Assembly: GCA_023701245.1 (NCBI GenBank)
Contig: JAMPXK010000002.1
Span: 40,960-104,959 of the forward strand
Direction of reading: 5' to 3'
Origin: Elusimicrobiales bacterium
Lineage (GTDB): Bacteria; Elusimicrobiota; Elusimicrobia; Elusimicrobiales; UBA9959
DNA length: 64,000 bases
Shown: piece by piece, positions 2,291 to 63,837 of the stretch
Position numbering within the stretch: position 1 is the stretch's first letter
Layout: each line of letters starts with the position of its first letter
The notes under the pieces: model-generated
The model's input: the letters and a program-made list of their open reading frames with translations, nothing else
Databases searched by the model: none
Told to the model about the DNA's origin: nothing
Made by a program: the position numbers and the translations under genes

Positions 2291-2325
2291 CCCGACAATA
2301 TGGTGTCGGGGGCGCCTGCTAGGCT
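2291..2325 (+). promoter_or_regulatory. candidate operator-promoter module: CCCGACA-N6-TGTCGGG, 6 nt, TGc, TAGGCT (copy 1 of 4)
   Basis: Palindrome 2291-2310 and extended -10 TGcTAGGCT 2317-2325. The ORF6N gene ATG is 21 nt after the -10 and has a G-rich SD. Confidence 0.55.
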
Positions 2326-2346: not shown

Positions 2347-2850
2347 ATGGCTAAAGACATTGTTCCGCAGGAAATCTTGGCGAGCAAGATATTGATGATG
2401 CGCGGTCACAAGGTTATGCTGGACCGGGACCTTGCTGCGCTTTATGGGGTCGCCACGCGCGACCTGAATAAAGCCGTCTCGCGCAATAAGGAGCGGTTCC
2501 CGGAGGATTTCATGTTCCGCGTCGGGAAGAAAGAGCTCGAGAACTTGATGTTCCAAATTGGAACATCAAGTTGGGGCGGCACCAGGAAGGCGCCCTATGT
2601 GTTCACTGAACATGGAATATTGATGCTGTCGTCCGTGCTGAGAAGCCGGAGGGCGGTACAGGTGAACATACAGATAATGCGGGCGTTCACGAAGACACGT
2701 GAATTGCTGTCCACCCACGCGGAACTGAGGCGTAAGCTGGAGGAGATGGAGAAGAAATACGACCACCAGTTCGCGGCGGTGTTCGATGCGATAAAGAACC
2801 TGATCTCCGCGGAGGATAAGGACGTAAAGAAAATAGGCTTTACGGCCTGA
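2347..2850 (+). CDS. ORF6N (KilA-N-related) domain DNA-binding protein
   Basis: KVMLDRDLAALYGVATRDLNKAVSRNKERFPEDFMF is the ORF6N signature. The C-terminal part is helical and charged. Confidence 0.8.
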   Translation: MAKDIVPQEILASKILMMRGHKVMLDRDLAALYGVATRDLNKAVSRNKERFPEDFMFRVGKKELENLMFQIGTSSWGGTRKAPYVFTEHGILMLSSVLRSRRAVQVNIQIMRAFTKTRELLSTHAELRRKLEEMEKKYDHQFAAVFDAIKNLISAEDKDVKKIGFTA

Positions 2851-14314: not shown

Positions 14315-15475
14315 GTGGAACTTTCCCAAGATCAGGAACTGGCGCTGGAGCGCCTGCTGGGCTGGTATAAAGACCCGCAGCGTTCCCGTTTTATTACGCT
14401 GGGCGGCTACGCCGGAACCGGCAAGACCACGCTCATAGCCGTGCTGAAGAACGAGCTGGTAAAGCTGAACAAGAACATAAGGTTCTCCTTCTGCAGCTAC
14501 ACGGGCAAGGCCGCGCAGAACCTCAAGAACAAATTGAAAGAGGCCGGCGCGCTCTCCGTAAAGGATTCGGTCAGCACCATCCACGGCCTCATCTACACGC
14601 CGCGCGAGAACGAGGCGGGCCACATAACCGGCTGGGACCGCAAGGACCTGCTGGAGCGCGACCTGATAATAGTGGACGAGGCCAGCATGGTGGACGGCCT
14701 TATCTGGATGGACCTGCTGTCCTATAATATCCCCATCATCGCCGTGGGCGATCACGGCCAGCTGCCGCCGATCTCGGGCAAGTTCAATTTAATGCAGGCG
14801 CCGGAAATACTGCTCACCCAGATACACCGCCAGGCGCAGGGCAACCCCATCATAACCGTGTCGGAACACGCCCGGGCCACCGGCCTGGTGCCGCCCGCGC
14901 GCTACGGCTCCGGCGTGGTGAAATATCTGAAAGAAGACTGCGACGCCCAGGAGAAAAGCGGCGAGCTGCTGGAATGCTATTCTCCCGACACGCTGATACT
15001 CTGCGGCTACAATAATACGCGCAACAAGATAAACCAGTTCATCCGGGCCAACCGCGGCTATGAAACGCCGGCCCCGGCCAGCGGCGACCGGGTTATCTGC
15101 CTGCGCAATAATCACAAGAAGGGGATTTATAACGGCATGCTGGGCACCATAGCGGCCATCTCCCCGGCGCAGAAAGACTGGTACCAGGCGGAGATCCAGC
15201 TGGACGACCGCGAGAAGCCTTACGAAGGCCTCATCTACGCGCCTCAATTCGGCGCAAAGACGGGCGTGAATTTCACCAAGGACCGCAAGCTCGCCATGAT
15301 AGGCGACTTGTTCGACTTCGGCTACGCGCTCACCGTGCACAAGGCGCAGGGCAGCCAGGCCCGCCGCGTGGTGCTGTTCGAGGAGCGCTTCGCCCAGATG
15401 GACGACGAAATGTGGCGCCGCTGGCTCTACACCGGCGTGACGCGCGCGGAAGAAGAACTGTACCTCTTCGGCTGA
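14315..15475 (+). CDS. RecD/Dda-like SF1 DNA helicase
   Basis: Walker A GGYAGTGKTT, Walker B IIVDEASMV, and C-terminal YALTVHKAQGSQ. GTG start lies 5 nt after TAGAAT (14304-14309). Confidence 0.8.
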   Translation: MELSQDQELALERLLGWYKDPQRSRFITLGGYAGTGKTTLIAVLKNELVKLNKNIRFSFCSYTGKAAQNLKNKLKEAGALSVKDSVSTIHGLIYTPRENEAGHITGWDRKDLLERDLIIVDEASMVDGLIWMDLLSYNIPIIAVGDHGQLPPISGKFNLMQAPEILLTQIHRQAQGNPIITVSEHARATGLVPPARYGSGVVKYLKEDCDAQEKSGELLECYSPDTLILCGYNNTRNKINQFIRANRGYETPAPASGDRVICLRNNHKKGIYNGMLGTIAAISPAQKDWYQAEIQLDDREKPYEGLIYAPQFGAKTGVNFTKDRKLAMIGDLFDFGYALTVHKAQGSQARRVVLFEERFAQMDDEMWRRWLYTGVTRAEEELYLFG

Positions 15476-31541: not shown

Positions 31542-31576
31542 CCCGACACCAGGCTGTCGGGTTGCCGTGGTATACT
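31542..31576 (+). promoter_or_regulatory. candidate operator-promoter module: CCCGACA-N6-TGTCGGG, 6 nt, TGg, TATACT (copy 2 of 4)
   Basis: Palindrome 31542-31561 and TGgTATACT 31568-31576. The recQ ATG lies 7 nt after the -10. Confidence 0.55.
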
Positions 31577-31583
31577 ATAAGTA

Positions 31584-33431
31584 ATGAAGCCGGAAGAGAT
31601 CCTGAAAAAGCGCTGGGGCTACAGCAGTTTCAAGCCGCTGCAGAAAGAGGCCGTGGAGGCCGCTTTCGCCGGGCGGGACTGCCTGGTGGTGCTGCCTACC
31701 GGCGGCGGCAAGAGCCTCTGCTACCAGTTGCCGGCGGCCGCGGGCAAGGGGCTGGTGCTGGTGGTGTCCCCGCTGATAGCGCTCATGGACGACCAGGTGG
31801 CCGCCGCGCGCGAAACCGGCCTGGCCGCGGACGCGCTGCATTCCAACCTGAAAGCGGGTCCCAAGCGGGAAGTTTACGCCAATCTCAACAGCGGCGTCAC
31901 GCAGTTGCTGTACGTCAGCCCGGAGCGCCTGCTGGCCGGGGACCTGTACGACGCCATAGCCCCGCGGCTGATCCTGGCCGCCGTGGACGAGGCGCACTGC
32001 GTGTCCCACTGGGGGCATGAATTCCGCCCGGAATACCGCAAGCTTACCGAAGCGCTGGACCTCTTCCCCAGGGCGGCGCGCATGGCGCTTACCGCCACGG
32101 CCACGCCCGCCGTACGCGAAGACATCCTCAAGCAGCTCGGCCTGCGCTCGCCCGAGGTGCTCATAGGCCACCCGGACAGGCCCAACCTGATCTACCGCGC
32201 TTTCCCGCGCCGGGACCAGGTAAAACAGGTGCTGGAGACGGTGCGGCGCCACCCCGGCGAAGGCGGCATAGTGTACGCCCAGACCCGCAAGGACGTGGAG
32301 CGCCTGGCCGCTAAATTAAAAGAGGAAGGCGTAGCCTGCGCGCCGTACCACGCCGGCCTGGGCGCGGCGCAACGCCAGCAGGCCCAGCACGATTTCGTCA
32401 ACGAGCGGCTGGACGTGATAGTGGCCACCATAGCCTTCGGCATGGGCATAGACCGCTCCAACGTGCGCTACGTGGTGCACGCCAATACGCCGCGCAGCGT
32501 GGAACATTACCAGCAGGAGAGCGGCCGCGCCGGGCGCGACGGCGAGCCGGCTGAATGCACGCTGCTGTTCTCGGCGGCGGACCTGGCCATGCACCGCTGG
32601 CTGGCCAAAAAAGACGTCACCCTTTCCGCCGAGCGCGCCAAGGCGCTGGAAAAGCAGCTGCGCGACATAGGCCGCTACGCATCGGCCCCGGTCTGCCGCC
32701 ACGGCCTGCTGGCCGCGCATTTCAGCGCGCCCTACCCTCCGGGGGGCGGGGCGCAGGCCAATTGCGGCGCCTGCGACGTGTGCCTGGGCGAGACCAAGGG
32801 CCTCCCGGACGACGAGGCCCTGCTGACGGCCAAGAAAGTGCTTTCCGCCGCCTGGCGCGCCGAGGGCCGTTACGGCACCGGCTACGTGGTGAACCTGCTG
32901 CTGGGCCGCCCCGGCGAGCGGGTGGCCGCCAACGGGCACGACCAGCTGAGGGTCTTCGGCCTGCTCAAAGAGGCGGGGGAACCGGCCGTGCGGTCCTGGA
33001 TAGACCAGCTGATAGTGCAGGATTTCCTGGAAGTCACGGAAGACGGGGACTACCCGCTGCTGCGCATCACCGCCGAGGGGCGCGCTCTCTGCCAGGACAA
33101 GGGCACGGTGCGGCTGGGCCAGCCGGTGCAGCCAGCTAAAGGCAAGAAGAAGCCCAAAGCGCTTAAAAAAGTTTCCGCGGAGTTCACCGAGGCGGACGAA
33201 GCCCTGTTCGACCGGCTGCGCGCCGTACGCCGGGCCCTGGCGGACAAGGCCGGCATCCCGCCTTACGTCATCTGCCAGGACGCTACCCTGGTGGAAATAG
33301 CCGCCGTGAAGCCGAAAACCCCGGAAGCCCTGCTGGAAATAAAGGGCATGGGGGAAAAGCGGGTGCAGAAATACGGCCGGTTCTTCCTGGACGCCCTGGC
33401 CGGGAAACTGGACCTGCCGCAGGGGGATTAG
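31584..33431 (+). CDS. recQ: ATP-dependent DNA helicase RecQ
   Basis: FKPLQKEAV, PTGGGKSLCYQLP, DEAHCVSHWGHEFRP, the Zn-binding cysteines CGACDVC, and a C-terminal HRDC-like domain. Confidence 0.92.
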   Translation: MKPEEILKKRWGYSSFKPLQKEAVEAAFAGRDCLVVLPTGGGKSLCYQLPAAAGKGLVLVVSPLIALMDDQVAAARETGLAADALHSNLKAGPKREVYANLNSGVTQLLYVSPERLLAGDLYDAIAPRLILAAVDEAHCVSHWGHEFRPEYRKLTEALDLFPRAARMALTATATPAVREDILKQLGLRSPEVLIGHPDRPNLIYRAFPRRDQVKQVLETVRRHPGEGGIVYAQTRKDVERLAAKLKEEGVACAPYHAGLGAAQRQQAQHDFVNERLDVIVATIAFGMGIDRSNVRYVVHANTPRSVEHYQQESGRAGRDGEPAECTLLFSAADLAMHRWLAKKDVTLSAERAKALEKQLRDIGRYASAPVCRHGLLAAHFSAPYPPGGGAQANCGACDVCLGETKGLPDDEALLTAKKVLSAAWRAEGRYGTGYVVNLLLGRPGERVAANGHDQLRVFGLLKEAGEPAVRSWIDQLIVQDFLEVTEDGDYPLLRITAEGRALCQDKGTVRLGQPVQPAKGKKKPKALKKVSAEFTEADEALFDRLRAVRRALADKAGIPPYVICQDATLVEIAAVKPKTPEALLEIKGMGEKRVQKYGRFFLDALAGKLDLPQGD

Positions 33432-36034: not shown

Positions 36035-38821
36035 TTGAATATCCGGGTAATAAGCGCGGCGGAGAACCTCGTAGAAGAAACGGGGAAGCTGCTGCTTTCC
36101 GGCGGGCCGCTGGCCGAAAACCTGGCGGTGTTCCCCGGCAAGCGGCCGGCGCATTTCCTGCGCAAGTACCTGGCCGACAGGCAGGGCAGGGCTTTTAAAG
36201 CTCCCGTCGTCACCTCCATGGACGGCTTTATCGACCTGGCCGCGGCGGAGCTGGGACTGAAAGGGCGCGAGGCCCCGCCCCTGGACCTGGCCGCGGTGCT
36301 CTACGCCCGCCTTAAACCGGAGTTGTGCCGCGTTATAGGCCGCGACCCCGCGGACCTGACGCTGGACTCTTTCCTGCCCTGGGCGCTCAAACTCGCCGGG
36401 GACTTCGAAGAACTGAAGATAGAGCTGAAAACGCCCAGGGACCTGGCCGCCTACGACTCCCTGCTGCCACGCGACCTGCGTTCGGCTTCCGTCATAAAGA
36501 AACTGGAGAGTTTCAGCGCCCTCTACGGCCGGTTCTACGCCGAACTGGAGCGGGAGGGCCTGCTGACGCGCTCCATGAAATACGCCGGCGTGGCGCGGGA
36601 GATCGGCCGCTTCGGCCATGAAAAATACGGGCATATGGTCTTTGCCGGTTTCTTCGCGCTGACCGCGGCCGAGAGAACTGTGCTGAAGCACCTGGCCGCG
36701 CGCGGCGCGCAGGTGCTGCTGGGGCCGGGGCCAGGCCTGGAAGAGCAGTTCTCCTTCCTGGGCGGCGCGGTCCAGCCCGCGCCCGGGCCCGCGCCCAAGC
36801 TGAATTTTTACCGCGCGCCGGACACCCACGGCGAGATCTTCAAGCTGGCCGAGGTGCTGCAAAAACCCGCGCCGGGCGACGTGGTGGTGCTGCCGGAACC
36901 CGCCGCCCTTTTCCCGCTCGTGGAACACGTGCTGCCCGCGGCGGGGGATTACAACATCTCCATGGGCTACCCGCTGGCGGCCACGCCGGTGTACGCGCTG
37001 CTGGACGCGCTGGGCGACCTGCTGGACAAGCGCGGCGAGGCCGGCTACTTCGCCCCCGACTATCTCAAGTTCGTCTTCCACCCTTACGTCAAGAACCTCT
37101 ACCTGGACGGCGCGGCCGAACCGGGGCGCGTCATCTTCCAGACGCTGGAGGAGGACCTGTCGCGCCGCGTGAACAAGTACGTGACCCTGCGCGAGATAGA
37201 GGAGAACGCGGAACTGCACCAGCGGGCGGCCGCCCGCCTGAAGGATTACGGCGGCGCCATAAGCCCGGCCGCGGTGAAAGCGCATTTAAAAGGCGTGCAC
37301 GACGCCCTGGTGCGGCCTTTCGAGCAGCTGGCTACTATAGCCGATTTCGCTGACAAGCTGCTGGCCGTGGTGGACCATGTTTCGCGCCACAGCACGGCCC
37401 CGCTGCACCCGTACTGGGCGCCGTTCGTGGAAAAGACCTTGGAGCATATCATAGGGCTGCGCAATTGCCGCCTGGCGGGGGAACGTTTCGGCGCGGCGGC
37501 CGGGTATTTCAAGTTCTTCAAGACGTCCCTGCAGGGCGCGGCCTACCCGTTCGCCGGCACGCCGCTCAAGGGGCTGCAGGTGCTGGGCCTGCTGGAAACG
37601 CGCGGCCTTAAGTTCGACCGCGTCTTTTTCCTGGACGCCAACGCCGACGTGCTGCCCGCCGCGCGCAAAGAGGACAGCGTGCTGTCGCATTTTGTGCGCG
37701 AAAGCCTGGGCCTGGCCACGTACAAGACGCGCGAACGCCTGGCACGCTACTATTTCAGCGCGCTGGCCGCCGGCGCCAAAGAAGCGCATATCTTCTACAA
37801 GGATTCCGCCGACAAGGAGCGCAGCCCTTTCGTGGAAAAGCTCATCTGGGACCTGGAGCGCCGGGGCGGGGGGCAGGGCGGGGGCGAAGTGCACCTGCGG
37901 GTGGATTTTTCGCAGACGGAGCCCTCCCCGGCGGCCAAGACGCCGGAGCTGACCGCGGCGCTGATGGCCCGGCAGTTCTCGCCTTCGGCCATAGACACTT
38001 ACCTGGCCTGCGGCCTGCGCTTCTACTACCGCTACGGCCTGCGCCTGGCCGAGAAGGACGAAGTGGGCGACGAGATAGACCAGCGCGACATAGGCAATAT
38101 CGTGCACGAGGTGCTGGAGGGTTTCTTCAAGGAGCGCGCCGGGCGGCCCCTGAACGTCATGGAGAAGGACCGGGGCGAGGTCCTGGCCGCGGCCCGCAAG
38201 GTTTTCGACGTGAAACTGAAAGGCCACGGGTCCGGGTTCGAATACCTGATAAAGCGCCAGGTTGAGCGGCGCCTGGGCGAGATCCTGGACTACCACCGCG
38301 ACAACCTCGTCGGCGTGACCGTGCTGGCCTGCGAGACGGAGCTTAAGGCGGAACTGCCCACCCGGTTCGGCAAGGTGAAGCTGCGCGGTTTCGCGGACCG
38401 CATAGACCAGCGCGGCGGCACCGTGCATATCCTGGATTACAAGACGGGCGCCAACGCCTCCGTGCCCAACTGGCAGCGCTTCGACCTGGGGCTGCGCGAA
38501 GAGTGGCCCGGGACCCTTAAGTCGGTGCAGCTGCCTTTCTATATTCTGGCTTACATGGCGGAACACGGCATAGAGAGCGCCGCCGGCATGGACGCTTCGC
38601 TGATGCTGCTGGGGTCCGAGAATATAACGGAAGAGACGCTTTACAAGGAGCGCAACAGGAAGACCCCCGACAAGGCCGCTATCTTCGGCACGTACAGGCA
38701 AGCCATCACCGCCCTGCTGGAAGAGATCCTGGACCCGGCGCTGCCCTTCTCCCCTACGGCCGACGAAAAGAACTGCGCCTCCTGCCCCTTCAAAACCCTC
38801 TGCGGCCGCCAGTGGGCGTAG
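36035..38821 (+). CDS. AddB-like PD-(D/E)XK nuclease family protein with an inactive helicase-like N-terminus
   Basis: TTG start with AAGGGG SD. No Walker A seen. C-terminal nuclease core HILDYKTG, QLPFYILAY, plus Cys in YLACGLRFYY and C-x2-C-x5-C (CASCPFKTLC), the AddB-type Fe-S staple pattern. Confidence 0.8.
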   Translation: MNIRVISAAENLVEETGKLLLSGGPLAENLAVFPGKRPAHFLRKYLADRQGRAFKAPVVTSMDGFIDLAAAELGLKGREAPPLDLAAVLYARLKPELCRVIGRDPADLTLDSFLPWALKLAGDFEELKIELKTPRDLAAYDSLLPRDLRSASVIKKLESFSALYGRFYAELEREGLLTRSMKYAGVAREIGRFGHEKYGHMVFAGFFALTAAERTVLKHLAARGAQVLLGPGPGLEEQFSFLGGAVQPAPGPAPKLNFYRAPDTHGEIFKLAEVLQKPAPGDVVVLPEPAALFPLVEHVLPAAGDYNISMGYPLAATPVYALLDALGDLLDKRGEAGYFAPDYLKFVFHPYVKNLYLDGAAEPGRVIFQTLEEDLSRRVNKYVTLREIEENAELHQRAAARLKDYGGAISPAAVKAHLKGVHDALVRPFEQLATIADFADKLLAVVDHVSRHSTAPLHPYWAPFVEKTLEHIIGLRNCRLAGERFGAAAGYFKFFKTSLQGAAYPFAGTPLKGLQVLGLLETRGLKFDRVFFLDANADVLPAARKEDSVLSHFVRESLGLATYKTRERLARYYFSALAAGAKEAHIFYKDSADKERSPFVEKLIWDLERRGGGQGGGEVHLRVDFSQTEPSPAAKTPELTAALMARQFSPSAIDTYLACGLRFYYRYGLRLAEKDEVGDEIDQRDIGNIVHEVLEGFFKERAGRPLNVMEKDRGEVLAAARKVFDVKLKGHGSGFEYLIKRQVERRLGEILDYHRDNLVGVTVLACETELKAELPTRFGKVKLRGFADRIDQRGGTVHILDYKTGANASVPNWQRFDLGLREEWPGTLKSVQLPFYILAYMAEHGIESAAGMDASLMLLGSENITEETLYKERNRKTPDKAAIFGTYRQAITALLEEILDPALPFSPTADEKNCASCPFKTLCGRQWA

Positions 38822-44800: not shown

Positions 44801-44838
44801 AGGACCGCCGGGTTTTATACCGGCGGTCCTCTTTTTTG
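44801..44838 (+). terminator. intrinsic terminator
   Basis: AGGACCGCCGG-gttttata-CCGGCGGTCCT followed by CTTTTTTG. Confidence 0.8.
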
Positions 44839-44840
44839 TC

Positions 44841-44875
44841 CCCGACAGTACGCTGTCGGGTTGGTCTGCTATGCT
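44841..44875 (+). promoter_or_regulatory. candidate operator-promoter module: CCCGACA-N6-TGTCGGG, 6 nt, TGc, TATGCT (copy 3 of 4, orphan)
   Basis: Palindrome 44841-44860 and TGcTATGCT 44867-44875. It points into the 3' end of the convergent MBL-fold gene. An extra half-site TGTCGGG lies at 44888-44894. Confidence 0.5.
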
Positions 44876-44899
44876 TTTAGTATGGGTTGTCGGGGGACT

Positions 44900-45886
44900 T
44901 TATTCCGGGAGTTCCACGGGGGCGGCGTCGCCGGCCACGCAGAATTCCTGCGTGCCGTCCAGGTCCGTGCGGAAAACCTTGGCGCCGGCGCCAAGCAGGC
45001 GCTCCAGCGCGTTCTGGGTGGGGTGGCCGTAATTGTTCTGGCCTACCTCTATATAGGCCTTGGCGGGGCGCACGGCCTCCAGGAAGGCCTCGGTGGAGGA
45101 GTACTTGCTGCCGTGGTGTCCCACTTTCAGCACGTCCGCGCGGAGCTCGTCGCCGTACTTTTCGGCCAGCAGCGTTTCCTTTTCGCCCTCGGTGTCGCCG
45201 GTGAACAGCATGGAGGAACCGCGGTAGGTCAGCTTGAGCATTATGGAGCAGTTGTTGAGGACCTCGCTGGTGGAGCTGGCAAAAGCCTTGTCGCAGGCGT
45301 TAAAGACCTTTATCTCCACGCCGGGGGCGCTCCAGTCCAGGCGGTCGCCGGCGGCGGGGTAAACGGTGTTGATCGCAAGGGCGGCGGCCTTCGCACGTAC
45401 GGCGTTGTCGCCGGTGGCGCCTTTATTGTCCACGCGGGTGTCGTAAAAATTGCCCACGGCTACGTTGGAGAAAACGTAGTTCAGCCCGTTGTAATGGTCG
45501 GAATGGGGGTGGGTAAGCACCACGTGGTCTATGGCGGTAACCTTCTTGTCGGCCAGGAATTTGGCCAGGCCGCCGGTGGCGGAGGAGGAGGGGCCGCCGT
45601 CTATAAGGGCGTTGGCGCCGCCGGGCAGTTCCAGGTAAATGGCGTCGCCCTGGCCCACGCTGAGAAAGTAGACGTTAAGGCCGGGGGCGGGGGTGTAGAC
45701 CGTGGCGTTGCGGGGTACGGGGGCGTAAGGCACCTCTACCGCGGGGGCGGCCTGGAGCAGCTGCTCAAAGGCCTGCGCCCGCAGGGGGGCGGGGGCAAAA
45801 TGGACTACGGCTAGCAGGAATAAGGCGGCGGCAAGAACTGCGTTCGGCTTTACGGGTGCTGGAGCGGGCCTGTTCACGTGATGCAT
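44900..45886 (-). CDS. MBL-fold metallo-hydrolase (ComEC C-terminal-domain-like), secreted
   Basis: ATG 45886 is preferred (SD GGAGG 5 nt upstream; the track ORF begins at GTG 45892). YFLSVGQGDAIYLE and VVLTHPHSDHYNGL, with an N-terminal hydrophobic signal. Confidence 0.8.
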   Translation of the reverse strand: MHHVNRPAPAPVKPNAVLAAALFLLAVVHFAPAPLRAQAFEQLLQAAPAVEVPYAPVPRNATVYTPAPGLNVYFLSVGQGDAIYLELPGGANALIDGGPSSSATGGLAKFLADKKVTAIDHVVLTHPHSDHYNGLNYVFSNVAVGNFYDTRVDNKGATGDNAVRAKAAALAINTVYPAAGDRLDWSAPGVEIKVFNACDKAFASSTSEVLNNCSIMLKLTYRGSSMLFTGDTEGEKETLLAEKYGDELRADVLKVGHHGSKYSSTEAFLEAVRPAKAYIEVGQNNYGHPTQNALERLLGAGAKVFRTDLDGTQEFCVAGDAAPVELPE

Positions 45887-45951
45887 ATCCACCTCCGCGT
45901 ATTGCTACTGGTCTCGCCGTGGTGAATCCGGATTAAGGTCCGGAGGTGGAT
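45887..45951 (-). promoter_or_regulatory. SD-sequestering helix in the 5' leader of the MBL-fold gene
   Basis: In the minus-strand RNA, AUCCACCUCC (45951-45942) is exactly complementary to GGAGGUGGAU (45896-45887), which contains the SD and abuts the AUG. The 45-nt insert has its own CCGGA/UCCGG hairpin. Confidence 0.5.
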
Positions 45952-46125
45952 GCTCCCCGGCCTATTCCGGGGATTACACGGCTGACGCATATACCTTACC
46001 GCCCATATTGATTTCGCTCAAGGGCCAAAAGGCCTATATCAATATAGGTCCAAAGGCCTATGCGCCTGGGCTCGCTCCATAGCGGGAGGGCGGCGCGCGG
46101 GTAAATGATAAAATAGTATTACCTG

Positions 46126-47688
46126 ATGGAAGACGCCTCCATAGAATTCAACGAGCAGTTCGCCAAAGCCCTGCATCTGCTGCAGCACGGCGGCGGCAAT
46201 GTGTTCGTTACCGGCAAGGCCGGTACCGGCAAAAGCACCCTGCTGCGCTACTTCCGGGCGCATACATCCAAGAAAATAGTGGTGCTGGCCCCTACCGGTG
46301 TGGCCGCCATAAACGTGGGCGGGGAAACCATCCACTCTTTCTTCAGGTTCAAGCCCGGCACCACCCCGGACAAGGTCCGCCGGGCCCGCAAGCGCGACGC
46401 GGAGGTTTACAGGGAACTGGACGCTATAGTGATAGACGAGGCTTCCATGCTGCGCGCGGACCTGCTGGACTGCGTAGACGCCTTTATGCGGATCAACGGG
46501 CGCGACCCGGGGCGGCCCTTCGGCGGGGCCCAGCTGGCGCTGTTCGGGGACCTGTACCAGCTGCCGCCGGTAGTGACGGCGCATGAGCGCGGCCTGTTCT
46601 CCTCCTATTACGAGGGGCCGTACTTCTTCAACGCCCGGGTGTTCAAGACGGCGGCGCTGGAATACGTGGAACTGGAAAAGATCTACCGCCAGAAAGACCA
46701 GGGGTTCATAGAGATCCTAAATGCCATCCGCAACAACCGGGTGAGCCCGGCCCAGCTGGCGGCCCTTAACCGGCGGGTGGGTGCGGACGTGGAGAGCGCG
46801 GGCGCGGGCGTGGTGGTGCGCCTTTTGACCACCAACGCCGACGCGGCGGAAATCAATAACGAGAAATTGCGCGCCATAGACGGCCGGGCGCATGTCTACA
46901 GGGCGGAGATAGGCGGGCAGTTTTCGCGCGACTCCTACCCGGCCGACGAGGAGCTGCACCTGAAAGCCGGGGCGCAGGTGATGCTGCTCAATAACGACGC
47001 CGACGGCCGCTGGGTGAACGGCACCATGGCCGCGGTGCAGGACATTATGAAGGGCCCCGCGGGGGCGGACGACGTGATACACGTGCGCCTGGCCGACGGG
47101 GCGGTGGAACCGGTGGAAAAGCACGCCTGGGAGCTTTTTCATTTCACCTACGACTCCGCGGCCGGCAAGATAAAGGCCGAGACCGCCGGGACTTTTATGC
47201 AGTACCCGCTGAAGCTGGCCTGGGGCGTTACCATACATAAGAGCCAGGGCAAGACCTTCCGGCGGGCGGTGATAGACCTGGGCCGCCGCGCTTTCGCGGC
47301 CGGGCAGACCTACGTGGCGCTCAGCCGCTGCACGGCGCTGGAGGGGCTGAGCCTGGCGCGGGCGGTGCGGCCCGGCGACGTGATGACCGACTGGCGCATA
47401 GTACGCTACGTGACCGGGCACCAGTACGGGGCCAGCGAAGCGGCCATGCCGCTGGACCGCAAGATAGACCTTATAACCGACGCCATAGCCAAGGGCGCCC
47501 TGCTGGAGATGACCTACCTGAAAGCCACCGACGAGCGCAGCCGCCGCACCGTGAAGCCGGTGAGCGTGGGGGACTGCCGCTTTAAGGAGCGGGTGTTCAA
47601 AGGCCTGGTGGCGGAATGCCTTAAGCGCGGCGAACGGCGCACTTTCAGGGTGGACAGGATACTGGAGCTTAAAGCCGTCGCCCGCTGA
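46126..47688 (+). CDS. PIF1-family SF1 helicase with a C-terminal WYL domain
   Basis: VFVTGKAGTGKSTLL, VVLAPTGVAAINVGGETIHSFF, IVIDEASML and WGVTIHKSQGKTF. The C-terminal TYLKATDERSRRTVKPVSV...RRTFRVDRILELK is WYL-like. Confidence 0.85.
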   Translation: MEDASIEFNEQFAKALHLLQHGGGNVFVTGKAGTGKSTLLRYFRAHTSKKIVVLAPTGVAAINVGGETIHSFFRFKPGTTPDKVRRARKRDAEVYRELDAIVIDEASMLRADLLDCVDAFMRINGRDPGRPFGGAQLALFGDLYQLPPVVTAHERGLFSSYYEGPYFFNARVFKTAALEYVELEKIYRQKDQGFIEILNAIRNNRVSPAQLAALNRRVGADVESAGAGVVVRLLTTNADAAEINNEKLRAIDGRAHVYRAEIGGQFSRDSYPADEELHLKAGAQVMLLNNDADGRWVNGTMAAVQDIMKGPAGADDVIHVRLADGAVEPVEKHAWELFHFTYDSAAGKIKAETAGTFMQYPLKLAWGVTIHKSQGKTFRRAVIDLGRRAFAAGQTYVALSRCTALEGLSLARAVRPGDVMTDWRIVRYVTGHQYGASEAAMPLDRKIDLITDAIAKGALLEMTYLKATDERSRRTVKPVSVGDCRFKERVFKGLVAECLKRGERRTFRVDRILELKAVAR

Positions 47689-49508: not shown

Positions 49509-50198
49509 TCAAGGGCCGTCAGGGCCCGCCTCCGCCTGGGCCGCCCTGGCGTAAATGGCCCGTATGCAGTCCGCGTAGGGCTGGCGCTTTTCTTTGGTGA
49601 AGTCCCGGTAGATGAGTTCCACGGCCCGGCCGGCGCCGAACATGGCGTGATCGATGGGGAAAAGCGTCTCGCTGCCCGGGGGCAGGAATTCTTTTTTTAT
49701 CTCCATGCGCAGACCCCACCCGGGCAGCAGGGAGAGGCAGTAGACCCATTTCTGTGAAGCCGGGTTGAAGATCTTTAGTACCGGGCCGGGAGCCTTGGAG
49801 GTGTTGGGCCGCATTTCCCAGGTCTGGCCTGGCAGGTCGCCAGCTGCCTGCATCAGTTCGCCCCAGAATTCCCGGAAGGTTTCTGCGGACTTGGGGTAGC
49901 GCACGGCTATATGCCTAACGAATTTTTCGAACTCCTCCCGGATGAGGGCCGGGTCCGCTTTCATTACCTTGGCCTTGTTGCGGTTCTCTTCGTCTATCCG
50001 GAGGCGGGTTATGAGGTCCTTGAGGGAAGCGGCTTCGGCCTCGGTGGCCGGGGCCAGGTACTGGGCCCGGAAGGTGAGGCGGTCCCCGGCCGGCGGCTGC
50101 ACGGTCACGTTGTCGCCGGCCACTTTCACCACCACGCCGAGCGACTTGTTGATGGTGTTGCGCACCGGCGCGTAAATTTCAAAAGTTTTCTGGTCCAT
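49509..50198 (-). CDS. hypothetical cytoplasmic protein (230 aa)
   Basis: Internal ATG 50198 is preferred (AGGGTGG SD; the longer track ORF would run through the operator region). No family recognised. Confidence 0.5.
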   Translation of the reverse strand: MDQKTFEIYAPVRNTINKSLGVVVKVAGDNVTVQPPAGDRLTFRAQYLAPATEAEAASLKDLITRLRIDEENRNKAKVMKADPALIREEFEKFVRHIAVRYPKSAETFREFWGELMQAAGDLPGQTWEMRPNTSKAPGPVLKIFNPASQKWVYCLSLLPGWGLRMEIKKEFLPPGSETLFPIDHAMFGAGRAVELIYRDFTKEKRQPYADCIRAIYARAAQAEAGPDGP

Positions 50199-50241
50199 CT
50201 GTTCCACCCTATGGGCAAATGATACAAAATTCCAAAACCAC

Positions 50242-50276
50242 CCCGACATTACGCTGTCGGGGTGGTCTGCTAGGCT
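50242..50276 (+). promoter_or_regulatory. candidate operator-promoter module: CCCGACA-N6-TGTCGGG, 6 nt, TGc, TAGGCT (copy 4 of 4)
   Basis: Palindrome 50242-50261 and TGcTAGGCT 50268-50276, in the divergent gap between 49509-50198 and radC. Confidence 0.55.
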
Positions 50277-50307
50277 ATTGCGCGGGGGCAAGGTAAAAGG
50301 GGGGCGT

Positions 50308-50982
50308 ATGAAAGGGGCCGGGACCATACAGGACATGCCGCGGGTAGAGCGCCCGCGGGAAAAGCTGATGCGCTACGGGCCGGAGAAACTGGCCGAGGAG
50401 GAACTGCTGGCCATCCTGCTGCGTACCGGGGTGCGGGGCAAAGGGGTGCTGGACCTGGCGGGGGAACTGCTGCGGCGCTTCGGCCGGGCGGACCTGGCCA
50501 AGGCGGGCTTCGCGGAATTGCGGGCTTACCCGGGGCTCGGCCCGGCGCGGGCCTGTGAAATACTGGCCGCTTTCGAACTGGGGCGGCGTTACCTCAACGG
50601 CAAAAAGGCCGGCATTTACCTCAAGCCGCGCGACATCTGGGAGGAGCTGCGGGATGTGCGCGACCAGAAGAAAGAGCACTTCGTGGTGTTCTACCTGGAC
50701 ACGCGCAACCAGGAGATAAAGCGGGACATCGTCTCCATCGGCACGCTGAACTACAACCTGGTGCACCCCCGGGAGGTGTTCGAGCCGGCGGTCAAGAACC
50801 TGGCCGCCAGCGTGATAGTGGCGCATAACCACCCGTCGGGCTGCCTGGAGCCGTCGGACGAGGACCTGAGCCTCACCAAGCGCCTGGCGCAGGCGGGCAA
50901 ACTCCTGGGCATAGAGCTGCTGGACCACGTGATAGTGACGAGGGAGGGCTTCATGAGCTTCAAACAGAAAGGCCTGCTGTAG
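50308..50982 (+). CDS. radC: RadC-like JAB-domain protein
   Basis: ATG 50308 with SD AAGGGGGG (the track ORF starts at TTG 50278). RPREKL...ELLAILLRTG and the JAMM motif HNHPSG..EPSDED. Confidence 0.85.
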   Translation: MKGAGTIQDMPRVERPREKLMRYGPEKLAEEELLAILLRTGVRGKGVLDLAGELLRRFGRADLAKAGFAELRAYPGLGPARACEILAAFELGRRYLNGKKAGIYLKPRDIWEELRDVRDQKKEHFVVFYLDTRNQEIKRDIVSIGTLNYNLVHPREVFEPAVKNLAASVIVAHNHPSGCLEPSDEDLSLTKRLAQAGKLLGIELLDHVIVTREGFMSFKQKGLL

Positions 50983-61679: not shown

Positions 61680-61708
61680 TTGGACACTTTAAGGGATATC
61701 TTTATAGG
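61680..61708 (+). promoter_or_regulatory. sigma70-type promoter TTGGAC-17-TATAGG for dinB
   Basis: TTGGAC 61680-61685 and TATAGG 61703-61708. The ATG is 8 nt after the -10 and there is no SD. Confidence 0.5.
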
Positions 61709-61716
61709 ATTAAAAC

Positions 61717-62899: not shown

Positions 62900-63325
62900 A
62901 TGGCTATTTCAAAAGTCTTCGAATACGAGCATAAGGTGACGCCCGAAGAGATAGACGGGCTGGGCCATGTCAACAACCAGGTATACCTGGACTGGTTCAT
63001 GCAGGCCGCCACCAGGCACTCAGAGGCGGCGGGCTGGGCCATAGAGCGGCTGCTGGCCCTGGGCGAGGGCTGGGTGGTGCGCCGCCACGAGATAGATTAC
63101 CTGCTGCCGGTCATGCCCGGCGAGACGGTGAAAATGCGCACCTGGATAGAGACCGCCGAGAAGGCGTCCTCGGAGCGGCATTACGAGATCTTCAGGCTGT
63201 CGGACGGCAAGAAGGCCTGCTGCGGCAGGACCATGTGGGTGTGGATAAATTACAAGACCGGCCGCCCCAGCCGTATCCCCGAGGCCGTGGTGGCGGCTTT
63301 CGCCGCCTGGACCCCGCGGCCTTAG
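62900..63325 (+). CDS. acyl-CoA thioesterase, 4HBT/YbgC type
   Basis: VTPEEIDGLGHVNNQVYLDWF; hotdog-fold size (141 aa). Confidence 0.85.
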   Translation: MAISKVFEYEHKVTPEEIDGLGHVNNQVYLDWFMQAATRHSEAAGWAIERLLALGEGWVVRRHEIDYLLPVMPGETVKMRTWIETAEKASSERHYEIFRLSDGKKACCGRTMWVWINYKTGRPSRIPEAVVAAFAAWTPRP

Positions 63326-63837
63326 CCGCGGGCCGGGGCTTTTTCCGCCCTGGCCTGTTCCACCGTTATCATTATTCTGGCGCAGGCCTCCGCGTCGGAG
63401 AGCGCGTTGTGGTGCTTCAGCGGGATGCTGAGGCGCTGGCAGACGTGCGCCAGCGTAGCCGGCTTAAGGCCAAGCTCCTTCCTTGAAAGCTGTACCGTGC
63501 ACACGAACGGCTGCGCCGGGGCCGGCAGGCCCGCGGCCGCGCAGCAGGCGTAAAGCACGCCCCTGTCGAAAGGGGCGTTGTGGGCCGCTATGAAGTCTAT
63601 CCCTTCGAAAAAATCCGCCAGCCCCGGCCAGACCTCGCGGAAAGGCGGCTCGTTCTCCACGTCCTCCCAGGCGATGTCGTGGATGTAGGTGAACAGGATG
63701 TCCGGGCGCGGCGGCCGGATAAGACGGTAGGCGGTACGCGTTACGCGGCCGTCCTCCACGCGGGCCAGGCCCACGGCGCAGGCGGAATCCCGCCCGTGGT
63801 CGGCCGTTTCAAAGTCTATGGCTGTAAAGGCCGCCAT
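63322..63837 (-). CDS. DEDD-type 3'-5' exonuclease (DnaQ-like)
   Basis: FTAIDFETAD (Exo I), AAHNAPFDRGVL (Exo II) and HNALSDAEACA (Exo III, DEDDh). Confidence 0.8.
   Translation of the reverse strand: MAAFTAIDFETADHGRDSACAVGLARVEDGRVTRTAYRLIRPPRPDILFTYIHDIAWEDVENEPPFREVWPGLADFFEGIDFIAAHNAPFDRGVLYACCAAAGLPAPAQPFVCTVQLSRKELGLKPATLAHVCQRLSIPLKHHNALSDAEACARIMITVEQARAEKAPARG

Follow-up and report, generated by a model that had tools for sequence, protein, structure and literature searches.

A palindromic promoter element of Elusimicrobia genomes and its probable recognition by a WYL activator of the DriD/PafBC type

Activators with a WYL domain have recently been established in two bacterial lineages: Actinobacteria (PafBC) and Caulobacter (DriD). 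PafBC is a heterodimer of PafB and PafC in which only PafB reads the DNA. Its site is non-palindromic and the system is linked to the proteasome locus. The in vivo consensus from chromatin immunoprecipitation sequencing (ChIP-seq) is tGTCgg(N10)tA(N3)T, with a '-26 element' (-23 to -28) in place of the -35 and a housekeeping -10 (PMC8635444). DriD of Caulobacter crescentus is a homodimeric WYL activator that is activated by single-stranded DNA (ssDNA) and serves an SOS-independent damage response. Its site, ATACGAC-N7-GTCGTAT, overlaps the position of an absent -35, and its distance to the -10 is constant (PMC13004042). Two other WYL proteins, CapW and BrxR, are repressors of cyclic oligonucleotide-based antiphage signalling system (CBASS) and bacteriophage exclusion (BREX) operons. 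They have a winged helix-turn-helix (wHTH)-WYL-WCX fold and palindromic promoter sites, and CapW senses ssDNA. The subject here is a palindrome, CCCGACA-N6-TGTCGGG, that occurs in a 64,000-nucleotide (nt) stretch of an Elusimicrobiales bacterium (assembly GCA_023701245.1, contig JAMPXK010000002.1, positions 40,960 to 104,959; hereafter the window). The four palindromes of the window are copies of a promoter element common to dozens of Elusimicrobia genomes. This element probably recruits a homodimeric, ssDNA-sensing WYL activator of the DriD/PafBC type that replaces the -35, which would add a third, distant and uncultured phylum to the two lineages above.

The window has four exact matches to the palindrome (Table 1). 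All four are intergenic and are flanked by open reading frames (ORFs) with coding-type codon composition. As read directly from the sequence, an extended -10 (TGn followed by TAnnCT) begins 6 nt past the palindrome in each case. No further palindrome was found within the window at up to two mismatches; the shuffle mean was 0.32, and none of 100 shuffles gave four. The half-pattern TGTCGG-N10-TAnnnT is found at the same four positions only (0.13 expected). These results bear out an earlier note on this DNA, which had described four palindromes at a constant 6-nt gap from TGnTAnnCT, no other pair in the window and no copy inside a gene. That note had also considered the promoters to lack a usable -35, and no canonical sigma-70-type -35/-10 pair is present in the gap before radC or at copy 3. 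The downstream genes that it had named (recQ, radC and an ORF6N gene) agree with the domain matches, and this gene content resembles that of a DNA-damage or mobile-element response. The recQ ATG lies 7 nt past the -10 of copy 2, and its mRNA would be leaderless or nearly so. The ORF6N protein is similar to phage anti-repressors (phrog_4792, E-value: 6e-26). Despite this likeness, its gene adjoins ordinary chromosomal genes.

The whole 35-nt architecture was searched for with an exact pattern that specifies 19 bases, in one genome per species; the spacing is imposed by this pattern. The matches comprise at least 117 stretches in at least 42 genome assemblies, with at least 7-8 copies in individual assemblies. 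Among the matches listed, every title that names a taxon names Elusimicrobia, Elusimicrobiota, Elusimicrobiales or Elusimicrobiaceae, and the closest relative is Elusimicrobia bacterium GWA2_62_23 (82-89% nucleotide identity to the window). The motif is restricted to the Elusimicrobia clade and has a fixed geometry. A scan of viral contigs (viral_contigs) with a relaxed pattern gave five matches, all of which are low-GC terminator hairpins followed by TAAAAT, without the rest of the motif.

The spacing was also checked on palindromes alone, with no imposed distance to the -10, in about 0.93 Mb of related DNA. This sample includes 11 loci that were fetched through the regulator protein described below and not through the motif. 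In 144 of 145 perfect palindromes, TAnnnT stands exactly 9 nt past an arm; the exception has TGTGCT there. Copies scattered at arbitrary distances from -10 elements, which the earlier note had named as an outcome contrary to a regulon, are not what is seen. The proximal arm and its distance to the -10 (TGTCGG-10 nt-TAnnnT) have the same sequence and the same register as the PafBC element, both in the four window copies and in these 144 palindromes. For DriD, we infer from the 'optimized -35' construct that the proximal GTCG of the didA promoter is 15 nt before the -10 hexamer, the same distance as here (PMC13004042).

The logo of the motif reads aA-CCCGACA-N6-TGTCGGG-tT-sgtC-TGc-TAtgCT-AT, and the base 7 nt past the -10 is a purine. 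Symmetry reaches 24 bp, with A at position -1 and T at position +22 of the palindrome, and the central spacer is G+C-rich. There is no TTGACA-like signal at the -35 position, which again agrees with the absence of a -35 proposed from the window. The segment between the arm and the -10 is conserved, as is the extended -10 TG, which is kept in all four window copies and in all 11 loci retrieved through the protein. The -10 itself consistently falls short of the consensus (TAtGCT or TAgGCT). Two-sided use, with a -10 at the fixed distance from either arm, is seen in five palindromes and is expected of a site for a symmetric dimer.

The positions of downstream genes indicate that the motif functions as a promoter. 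An ORF starts within 260 nt downstream of 126 of 132 sites; 64 of these ORFs start 11-40 nt past the -10 and 22 start within 10 nt of it. At 41 of 149 sites an ATG is located exactly 6 nt after the -10 (neighbouring offsets: 0-2), and 38 of these 41 open ORFs of at least 55 amino acids (aa). The leaderless ORFs encode, among others, RecQ, ComM/YifB, a radical-SAM repair protein, a PD-(D/E)XK nuclease and a UvrD-like helicase. This peak is characteristic of leaderless mRNAs and puts the transcription start 7 nt after the -10. The palindrome would then cover about -41 to -22, and its TGTCGG arm -28 to -23.

Several of the downstream gene names in relatives were assigned by eye from N-terminal sequences, without family models. 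With these assignments, the target set is enriched in DNA repair, recombination and replication functions. It includes ssb (10 sites), radC (7 sites), comM (5 sites), recQ (4 clustered sites), a UvrD/AddA-like helicase (4 sites), a PD-(D/E)XK nuclease (4 sites), a radical-SAM repair protein (2 sites) and a Y-family polymerase (1 site). At least five copies of recQ, including that of the window, are leaderless under the motif; others are in loci L007, L020 and L108. Two families of small proteins also recur, a 63-aa basic protein and a 90-99-aa family (11 sites each). The set further includes ORF6N (8 sites), IS200-like (8 sites), AlbA_2 (7 sites) and DUF1016 (6 sites) genes, together with Bro-N, DUF3800 and BrnT-type genes; anti-repressor-like and toxin genes are thus represented.

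The single Y-family polymerase gene under the motif is at L048:78 (assembly MJ_bin-1308). In the window, dinB has an ordinary promoter instead (61680-61716, TTGGAC-17-TATAGG, no palindrome), exactly as the earlier note had read it. Three other DNA-metabolism genes of the window, identified by eye from their translations, are motif-free as well. They probably encode a RecD-like helicase (14315-15475), an AddB-like PD-(D/E)XK nuclease (36035-38821) and a DnaQ-like exonuclease (63322-63837).

A candidate regulator was found in the relatives. A fragment in locus L065, found by a WYL motif pattern, resembles the C-terminus of a WYL-WCX protein and has its best Protein Data Bank (PDB) matches to DriD. 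Through its homologues, 13 metagenome loci were reached that encode the full-length protein, of 314 aa. This protein has the domains HTH_11, WYL and WCX. Its best sequence match in the PDB is PafC (E-value: 8e-5, residues 28-312), and it also matches PafBC; a PDB search with the HTH region alone gave only generic HTH proteins. Its homologues form 98 clusters, about 80 of them at 65-95% identity to the query and the most distant at 20-50%. All taxon-named homologues belong to Elusimicrobia, and some come from assemblies in which the motif is also present. When an AlphaFold model of the protein was compared with known structures by Foldseek, the ranking was DriD (1e-13), PafBC (1.4e-13), CapW (1e-9) and BrxR (2e-8). 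In the recognition helix, residues R40 and R44 are invariant; in the WYL loop, K192, R194 and R197 are nearly so. The i/i+4 spacing of R40 and R44 is that of DriD R37/R41 and PafB R46/R50, the residues that read the guanines of GTC in those proteins. E. coli yafY was tried as a WYL seed and dropped, as the K-12 gene encodes a lipoprotein and not a WYL protein.

The regulator gene lies beside tuf and is followed by genes for a secreted or membrane protein and a DUF350 protein. Of the 13 metagenome loci, 11 have enough flanking sequence, and in every one of these the regulator gene is followed at 1.6-3.6 kb by a motif promoter. Ten of the 11 linked loci have a perfect palindrome; that of L130 contains two mismatches, placed symmetrically. 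Regulator and motif are neighbours in the same way in six genome loci. A homologue at 42% identity has a perfect motif 21 nt past its stop codon, and this copy drives a related small protein. The existence of an HTH-WYL-WCX regulator, its fold class and its linkage to the motif by gene order are thereby established. The linked promoter (Table 1) drives a leaderless 63-aa basic protein (MTNKNR..LRVYTLG..), a 90-aa protein (MAWEIKGW..) and often a radical-SAM enzyme. The two small proteins have no Pfam, NCBIfam or PHROG match and may act as damage effectors, for instance as a division inhibitor.

A WYL activator is preferred as the protein that acts on the motif because the phasing is exact to the nucleotide over about 150 promoters and because the proximal arm equals the activator elements of PafBC and DriD. 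The sub-consensus -10, the five two-sided palindromes and the closer relationship of the regulator to DriD and PafBC than to CapW and BrxR are further reasons. That the regulator binds the motif, that it activates and does not repress transcription, and that ssDNA is its signal are inferred from these features. The proposed model is as follows. Each copy would be a 'hybrid' promoter of the housekeeping RNA polymerase, with a -10 and no -35. The 24-bp palindrome, centred near -31.5, would be bound by an HTH-WYL-WCX homodimer. By analogy with DriD and PafBC, ssDNA that arises from DNA damage, and possibly from DNA uptake, would bind the regulator and free its winged-helix domains. The promoter-proximal domain would then read TGTCGG at -28 to -23 beside sigma region 4 and recruit RNA polymerase. 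Dispersed genes for ssDNA handling and of mobile elements would be switched on. In the window these would be radC, recQ and ORF6N, along with antisense or read-through transcription at a metallo-beta-lactamase (MBL)-fold gene and a PIF1 gene.

A number of observations weigh against this model. No WYL regulator gene was found in the window by Pfam searches of the flanking proteins and phmmer, which turned up only a PIF1-WYL helicase; the regulator is known from relatives at 82-89% nucleotide identity and beyond, not from this exact genome. An exact-protein look-up gave no match for RadC of the window and placed its RecQ on a single 3-kb Logan contig. In contrast to DriD, no motif was found before the gene of the regulator itself. 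Two low-GC homologues (L138 and L139; 40-41% GC, 43% identity) keep the order tuf-regulator-DUF350, and neither the motif nor GTCG-N11-TAnnnT was found within 7.8 kb of them. In low-GC Elusimicrobia the site may be different or absent. The AlphaFold model is of moderate quality (predicted local distance difference test [pLDDT] 74, predicted template modelling score [pTM] 0.36), and the fold is shared with the repressors CapW and BrxR. The palindrome here contrasts with the heterodimer and non-palindromic site of PafBC. It also departs from the strict DriD box, with CGAC-N8-GTCG in place of N7 and a G+C-rich centre where that of DriD is A+T-rich. Lastly, a promoter with a conserved extended -10 TG could fire without a -35 or an activator.

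This last point is also the starting point for repression, which the earlier note had proposed. The same WYL protein, acting in the manner of CapW or BrxR, or another HTH protein would use the palindrome as an operator, occlude -41 to -22 and leave upon damage. The palindrome does cover the position of sigma region 4, and ssDNA-sensing WYL repressors with the same fold exist. Repression is nevertheless less likely than activation. An operator needs no fixed spacing, let alone the single-nucleotide phasing kept here, while the arm next to the -10 copies the -26 element of PafBC in sequence and register and has the register of the proximal DriD half-site; both PafBC and DriD are activators that replace a -35. 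The sub-consensus -10 suggests that the promoter needs help, and the regulator has its nearer relatives in DriD and PafBC, not in CapW and BrxR. It is more improbable still that a different regulator, for example a competence-type factor, binds the motif and that the WYL gene is a coincidental neighbour. The gene set overlaps the classical competence regulons of Haemophilus and Streptococcus, with ssb, radC, comM and a ComEC-like gene among the targets, and the link of the WYL protein to the motif is one of analogy and gene order. Against such a factor, half-site and register match two characterised WYL activators, the adjacency of regulator and motif holds down to 42% protein identity, and no other regulator family recurs among the downstream genes.

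Two further explanations have very little probability. An alternative sigma factor could use TGTCGGG as a -35-like element, in keeping with two conserved blocks at a fixed spacing and no TTGACA. However, the downstream block is an extended -10 of the housekeeping type, sigma factors do not require a 24-bp perfect palindrome, and canonical TTGACA-17-TAnAAT promoters are present in the same loci as the motif. The other explanation, just as remote, is a repeat of the repetitive extragenic palindrome (REP) or miniature inverted-repeat transposable element (MITE) kind, or a terminator hairpin, with no regulatory role. The unusually invariant arms and the position of two window copies after terminators would suit it. 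Such repeats would occur regardless of gene starts and within repeat-derived flanks, whereas the motif is always oriented to a gene start at promoter distance and its flanks are mutually unrelated. The stem is not followed by a T-run, and the look-alikes in viral contigs are true low-GC terminators. The motif is moreover kept before radC, recQ and ORF6N in relatives. In this respect the earlier note, which had favoured a regulon over a REP-like repeat and had named conservation before orthologous genes as a check, was right.

Table 1. Features of the window and, in the last four rows, regulator-linked operons in other loci
Feature	Position	Strand	Remarks
Copy 1, palindrome	2291-2310	+	upstream of ORF6N gene
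Copy 1, extended -10	2317-2325	+	TGc TAGGCT
ORF6N gene	2347-2850	+	Pfam ORF6N 6e-33
Copy 2, palindrome	31542-31561	+	upstream of recQ
Copy 2, extended -10	31568-31576	+	TGg TATACT
recQ	31584-33431	+	RecQ domains
Copy 3, palindrome	44841-44860	+	faces 3' end of convergent MBL-fold gene
Copy 3, extended -10	44867-44875	+	TGc TATGCT
Antisense frame, 310 aa	44882-45814	+	ATG 6 nt past -10 of copy 3; codon-aligned, antisense to MBL-fold gene; no Pfam match
MBL-fold hydrolase gene	44900-45892	-	Pfam Lactamase_B 2e-18; NCBIfam ComEC_Rec2 8e-29, below family cut-off
2'-deoxyguanosine-II (2dG-II) purine riboswitch aptamer	45914-45984	-	5' leader of MBL-fold gene; Rfam RF03165, 76.8 bits (gathering score 60)
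PIF1-family helicase gene, C-terminal WYL domain	46126-47688	+	Pfam PIF1 1e-26, WYL 1.6e-9
229-aa gene, divergent from radC	49509-50198	-	no Pfam, NCBIfam or PHROG match
Copy 4, 24-bp symmetric site	50240-50263	+	ac-CCCGACA-ttacgc-TGTCGGG-gt; predicted WYL-dimer site, about -43 to -20
Copy 4, palindrome	50242-50261	+	upstream of radC
Copy 4, extended -10	50268-50276	+	TGc TAGGCT
radC	50308-50982	+	RadC-like JAB domain; Pfam RadC 2e-41, NCBIfam RadC 3e-69
Linked operon	L120:3391-3895
Linked operon	L124:8374-8904
Linked operon	L129:8440-8932
Linked operon	L140:1881-2366

At the radC locus (copy 4), transcription is predicted to start at about 50282-50284, a position that follows from the leaderless ATG peak 6 nt past the -10 at other copies. 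A G-rich ribosome-binding site comes next, before the radC ATG. In the radC promoters of six other genomes, identity to the window copy is 71-89% for the motif and only 22-44% for the flanks. The palindrome between radC and the divergent 229-aa gene is two-sided in the nearest relative, L095. There, the TATCAT of the 229-aa gene is at the canonical 9 nt from the palindrome (L095:1725); in the window it is at 17 nt. This gene may belong to the regulon.

Copy 3 has a different setting. It comes directly after the terminator of the preceding gene (44801-44838) and is directed into the 3' end of a convergent MBL-fold gene, which the earlier note did not mention. The MBL protein resembles the C-terminal (nuclease) domain of ComEC/Rec2. 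The 2dG-II riboswitch in its leader is present in 12 of 12 related loci (L095, L094, L043, L002, L051, L013, L036, L072, L113, L084, L107 and L086), and in 11 of these, L107 being the exception, the motif is found at the 3' end of the MBL gene. Arrangements like that of copy 3 exist at 12 related sites. The MBL gene is consequently placed between a 2'-deoxyguanosine riboswitch at its 5' end and a damage-type promoter that faces its 3' end. A third TGTCGGG at 44888 lacks conservation in relatives and is probably due to chance.

The gene for the PIF1-WYL helicase is divergent from the MBL gene, with synteny in nine loci, and is the next + strand gene in the possible path of a transcript from copy 3. 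No convincing + strand terminator was found between copy 3 and PIF1. The PIF1-WYL gene also has an extended -10 of its own (TGaTAAAAT, at about 46105-46113). The antisense frame downstream of copy 3 (about 310 aa) is open in nine loci. One of them belongs to a 52%-GC genome, where the expectation would be five antisense stops (P about 0.006). In 63%-GC genomes, however, open antisense frames are common, and this frame may be no more than that. The product of copy 3 could be an antisense control of the MBL gene, a long leader to PIF1 or a true overlapping gene.

The broader significance of these findings is more tentative. It is conceivable, with some doubt attached to the whole combination, that Elusimicrobia have a LexA-independent 'ssDNA regulon' that acts through a WYL adaptor, that mobile elements tap it, that its promoters share an ancient GTCGG(-26)/-10 code and that it includes a leaderless antisense transcript. 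If so, the regulon would join SOS-type genes (recQ, helicases, nucleases, a Y-family polymerase) with competence-type genes (ssb, radC, comM, ComEC-like), and anti-repressor, toxin and IS200-like genes would use it as an induction switch. The GTCGG(-26)/-10 arrangement, shared by Actinobacteria, Alphaproteobacteria and Elusimicrobia, would be an ancient and widespread promoter class. The leaderless transcript from copy 3 would cross a nuclease gene under the control of a 2'-dG riboswitch and might itself encode a protein, as an overlapping gene. For organisms that cannot be cultured, the invariant motif provides a map of the regulon and predicts transcription starts and many leaderless mRNAs. 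It also nominates damage effectors, namely the 63-aa basic protein, the 90-99-aa family and the 229-aa protein divergent from radC.

Among known systems, LexA/SOS shares with the motif a dispersed palindrome before DNA-repair and prophage anti-repressor-type genes. LexA boxes vary in position and are degenerate, whereas position and arms are invariant here, which upholds the view of the earlier note that the palindrome is unlike a LexA box. To our knowledge, the motif matches no LexA box class in sequence either, and the motif-free dinB of the window is contrary to what SOS control would lead one to expect. CapW and BrxR act locally, beside one defence operon, and are weaker structural matches; dispersed, phase-locked sites are not known for them. 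The likeness to PafBC extends to the absence of a -35, the housekeeping-type -10, the LexA-independent set of DNA-repair genes and the HTH-WYL-WCX regulator. Elusimicrobia differ from PafBC in the strict sense in having one regulator gene between tuf and the DUF350 gene, a palindromic 24-bp site with a distal arm, and conservation both of the TG of the extended -10 and of the stretch that joins the arm to the -10. DriD is the best structural match and shares the CGAC/GTCG core, the register of the proximal half-site and a palindrome placed over an absent -35. The outer bases are CCC/GGG here and ATA/TAT in DriD, and the targets are many more per genome, many of them leaderless. The site thus unites the PafBC element with a DriD-like symmetry, which suggests that replacement of the -35 by a WYL adaptor is an old and general response to ssDNA. 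The earlier note had called the regulon undescribed. No description of the motif, of a WYL regulon or of a LexA link in Elusimicrobia was found in the literature, so this holds for the phylum; it does not hold for the kind of system, which is already known from PafBC and DriD. What is new is the phylum and the architecture of the site, a palindrome with an N8 core spacing, an extended -10 and many leaderless targets.

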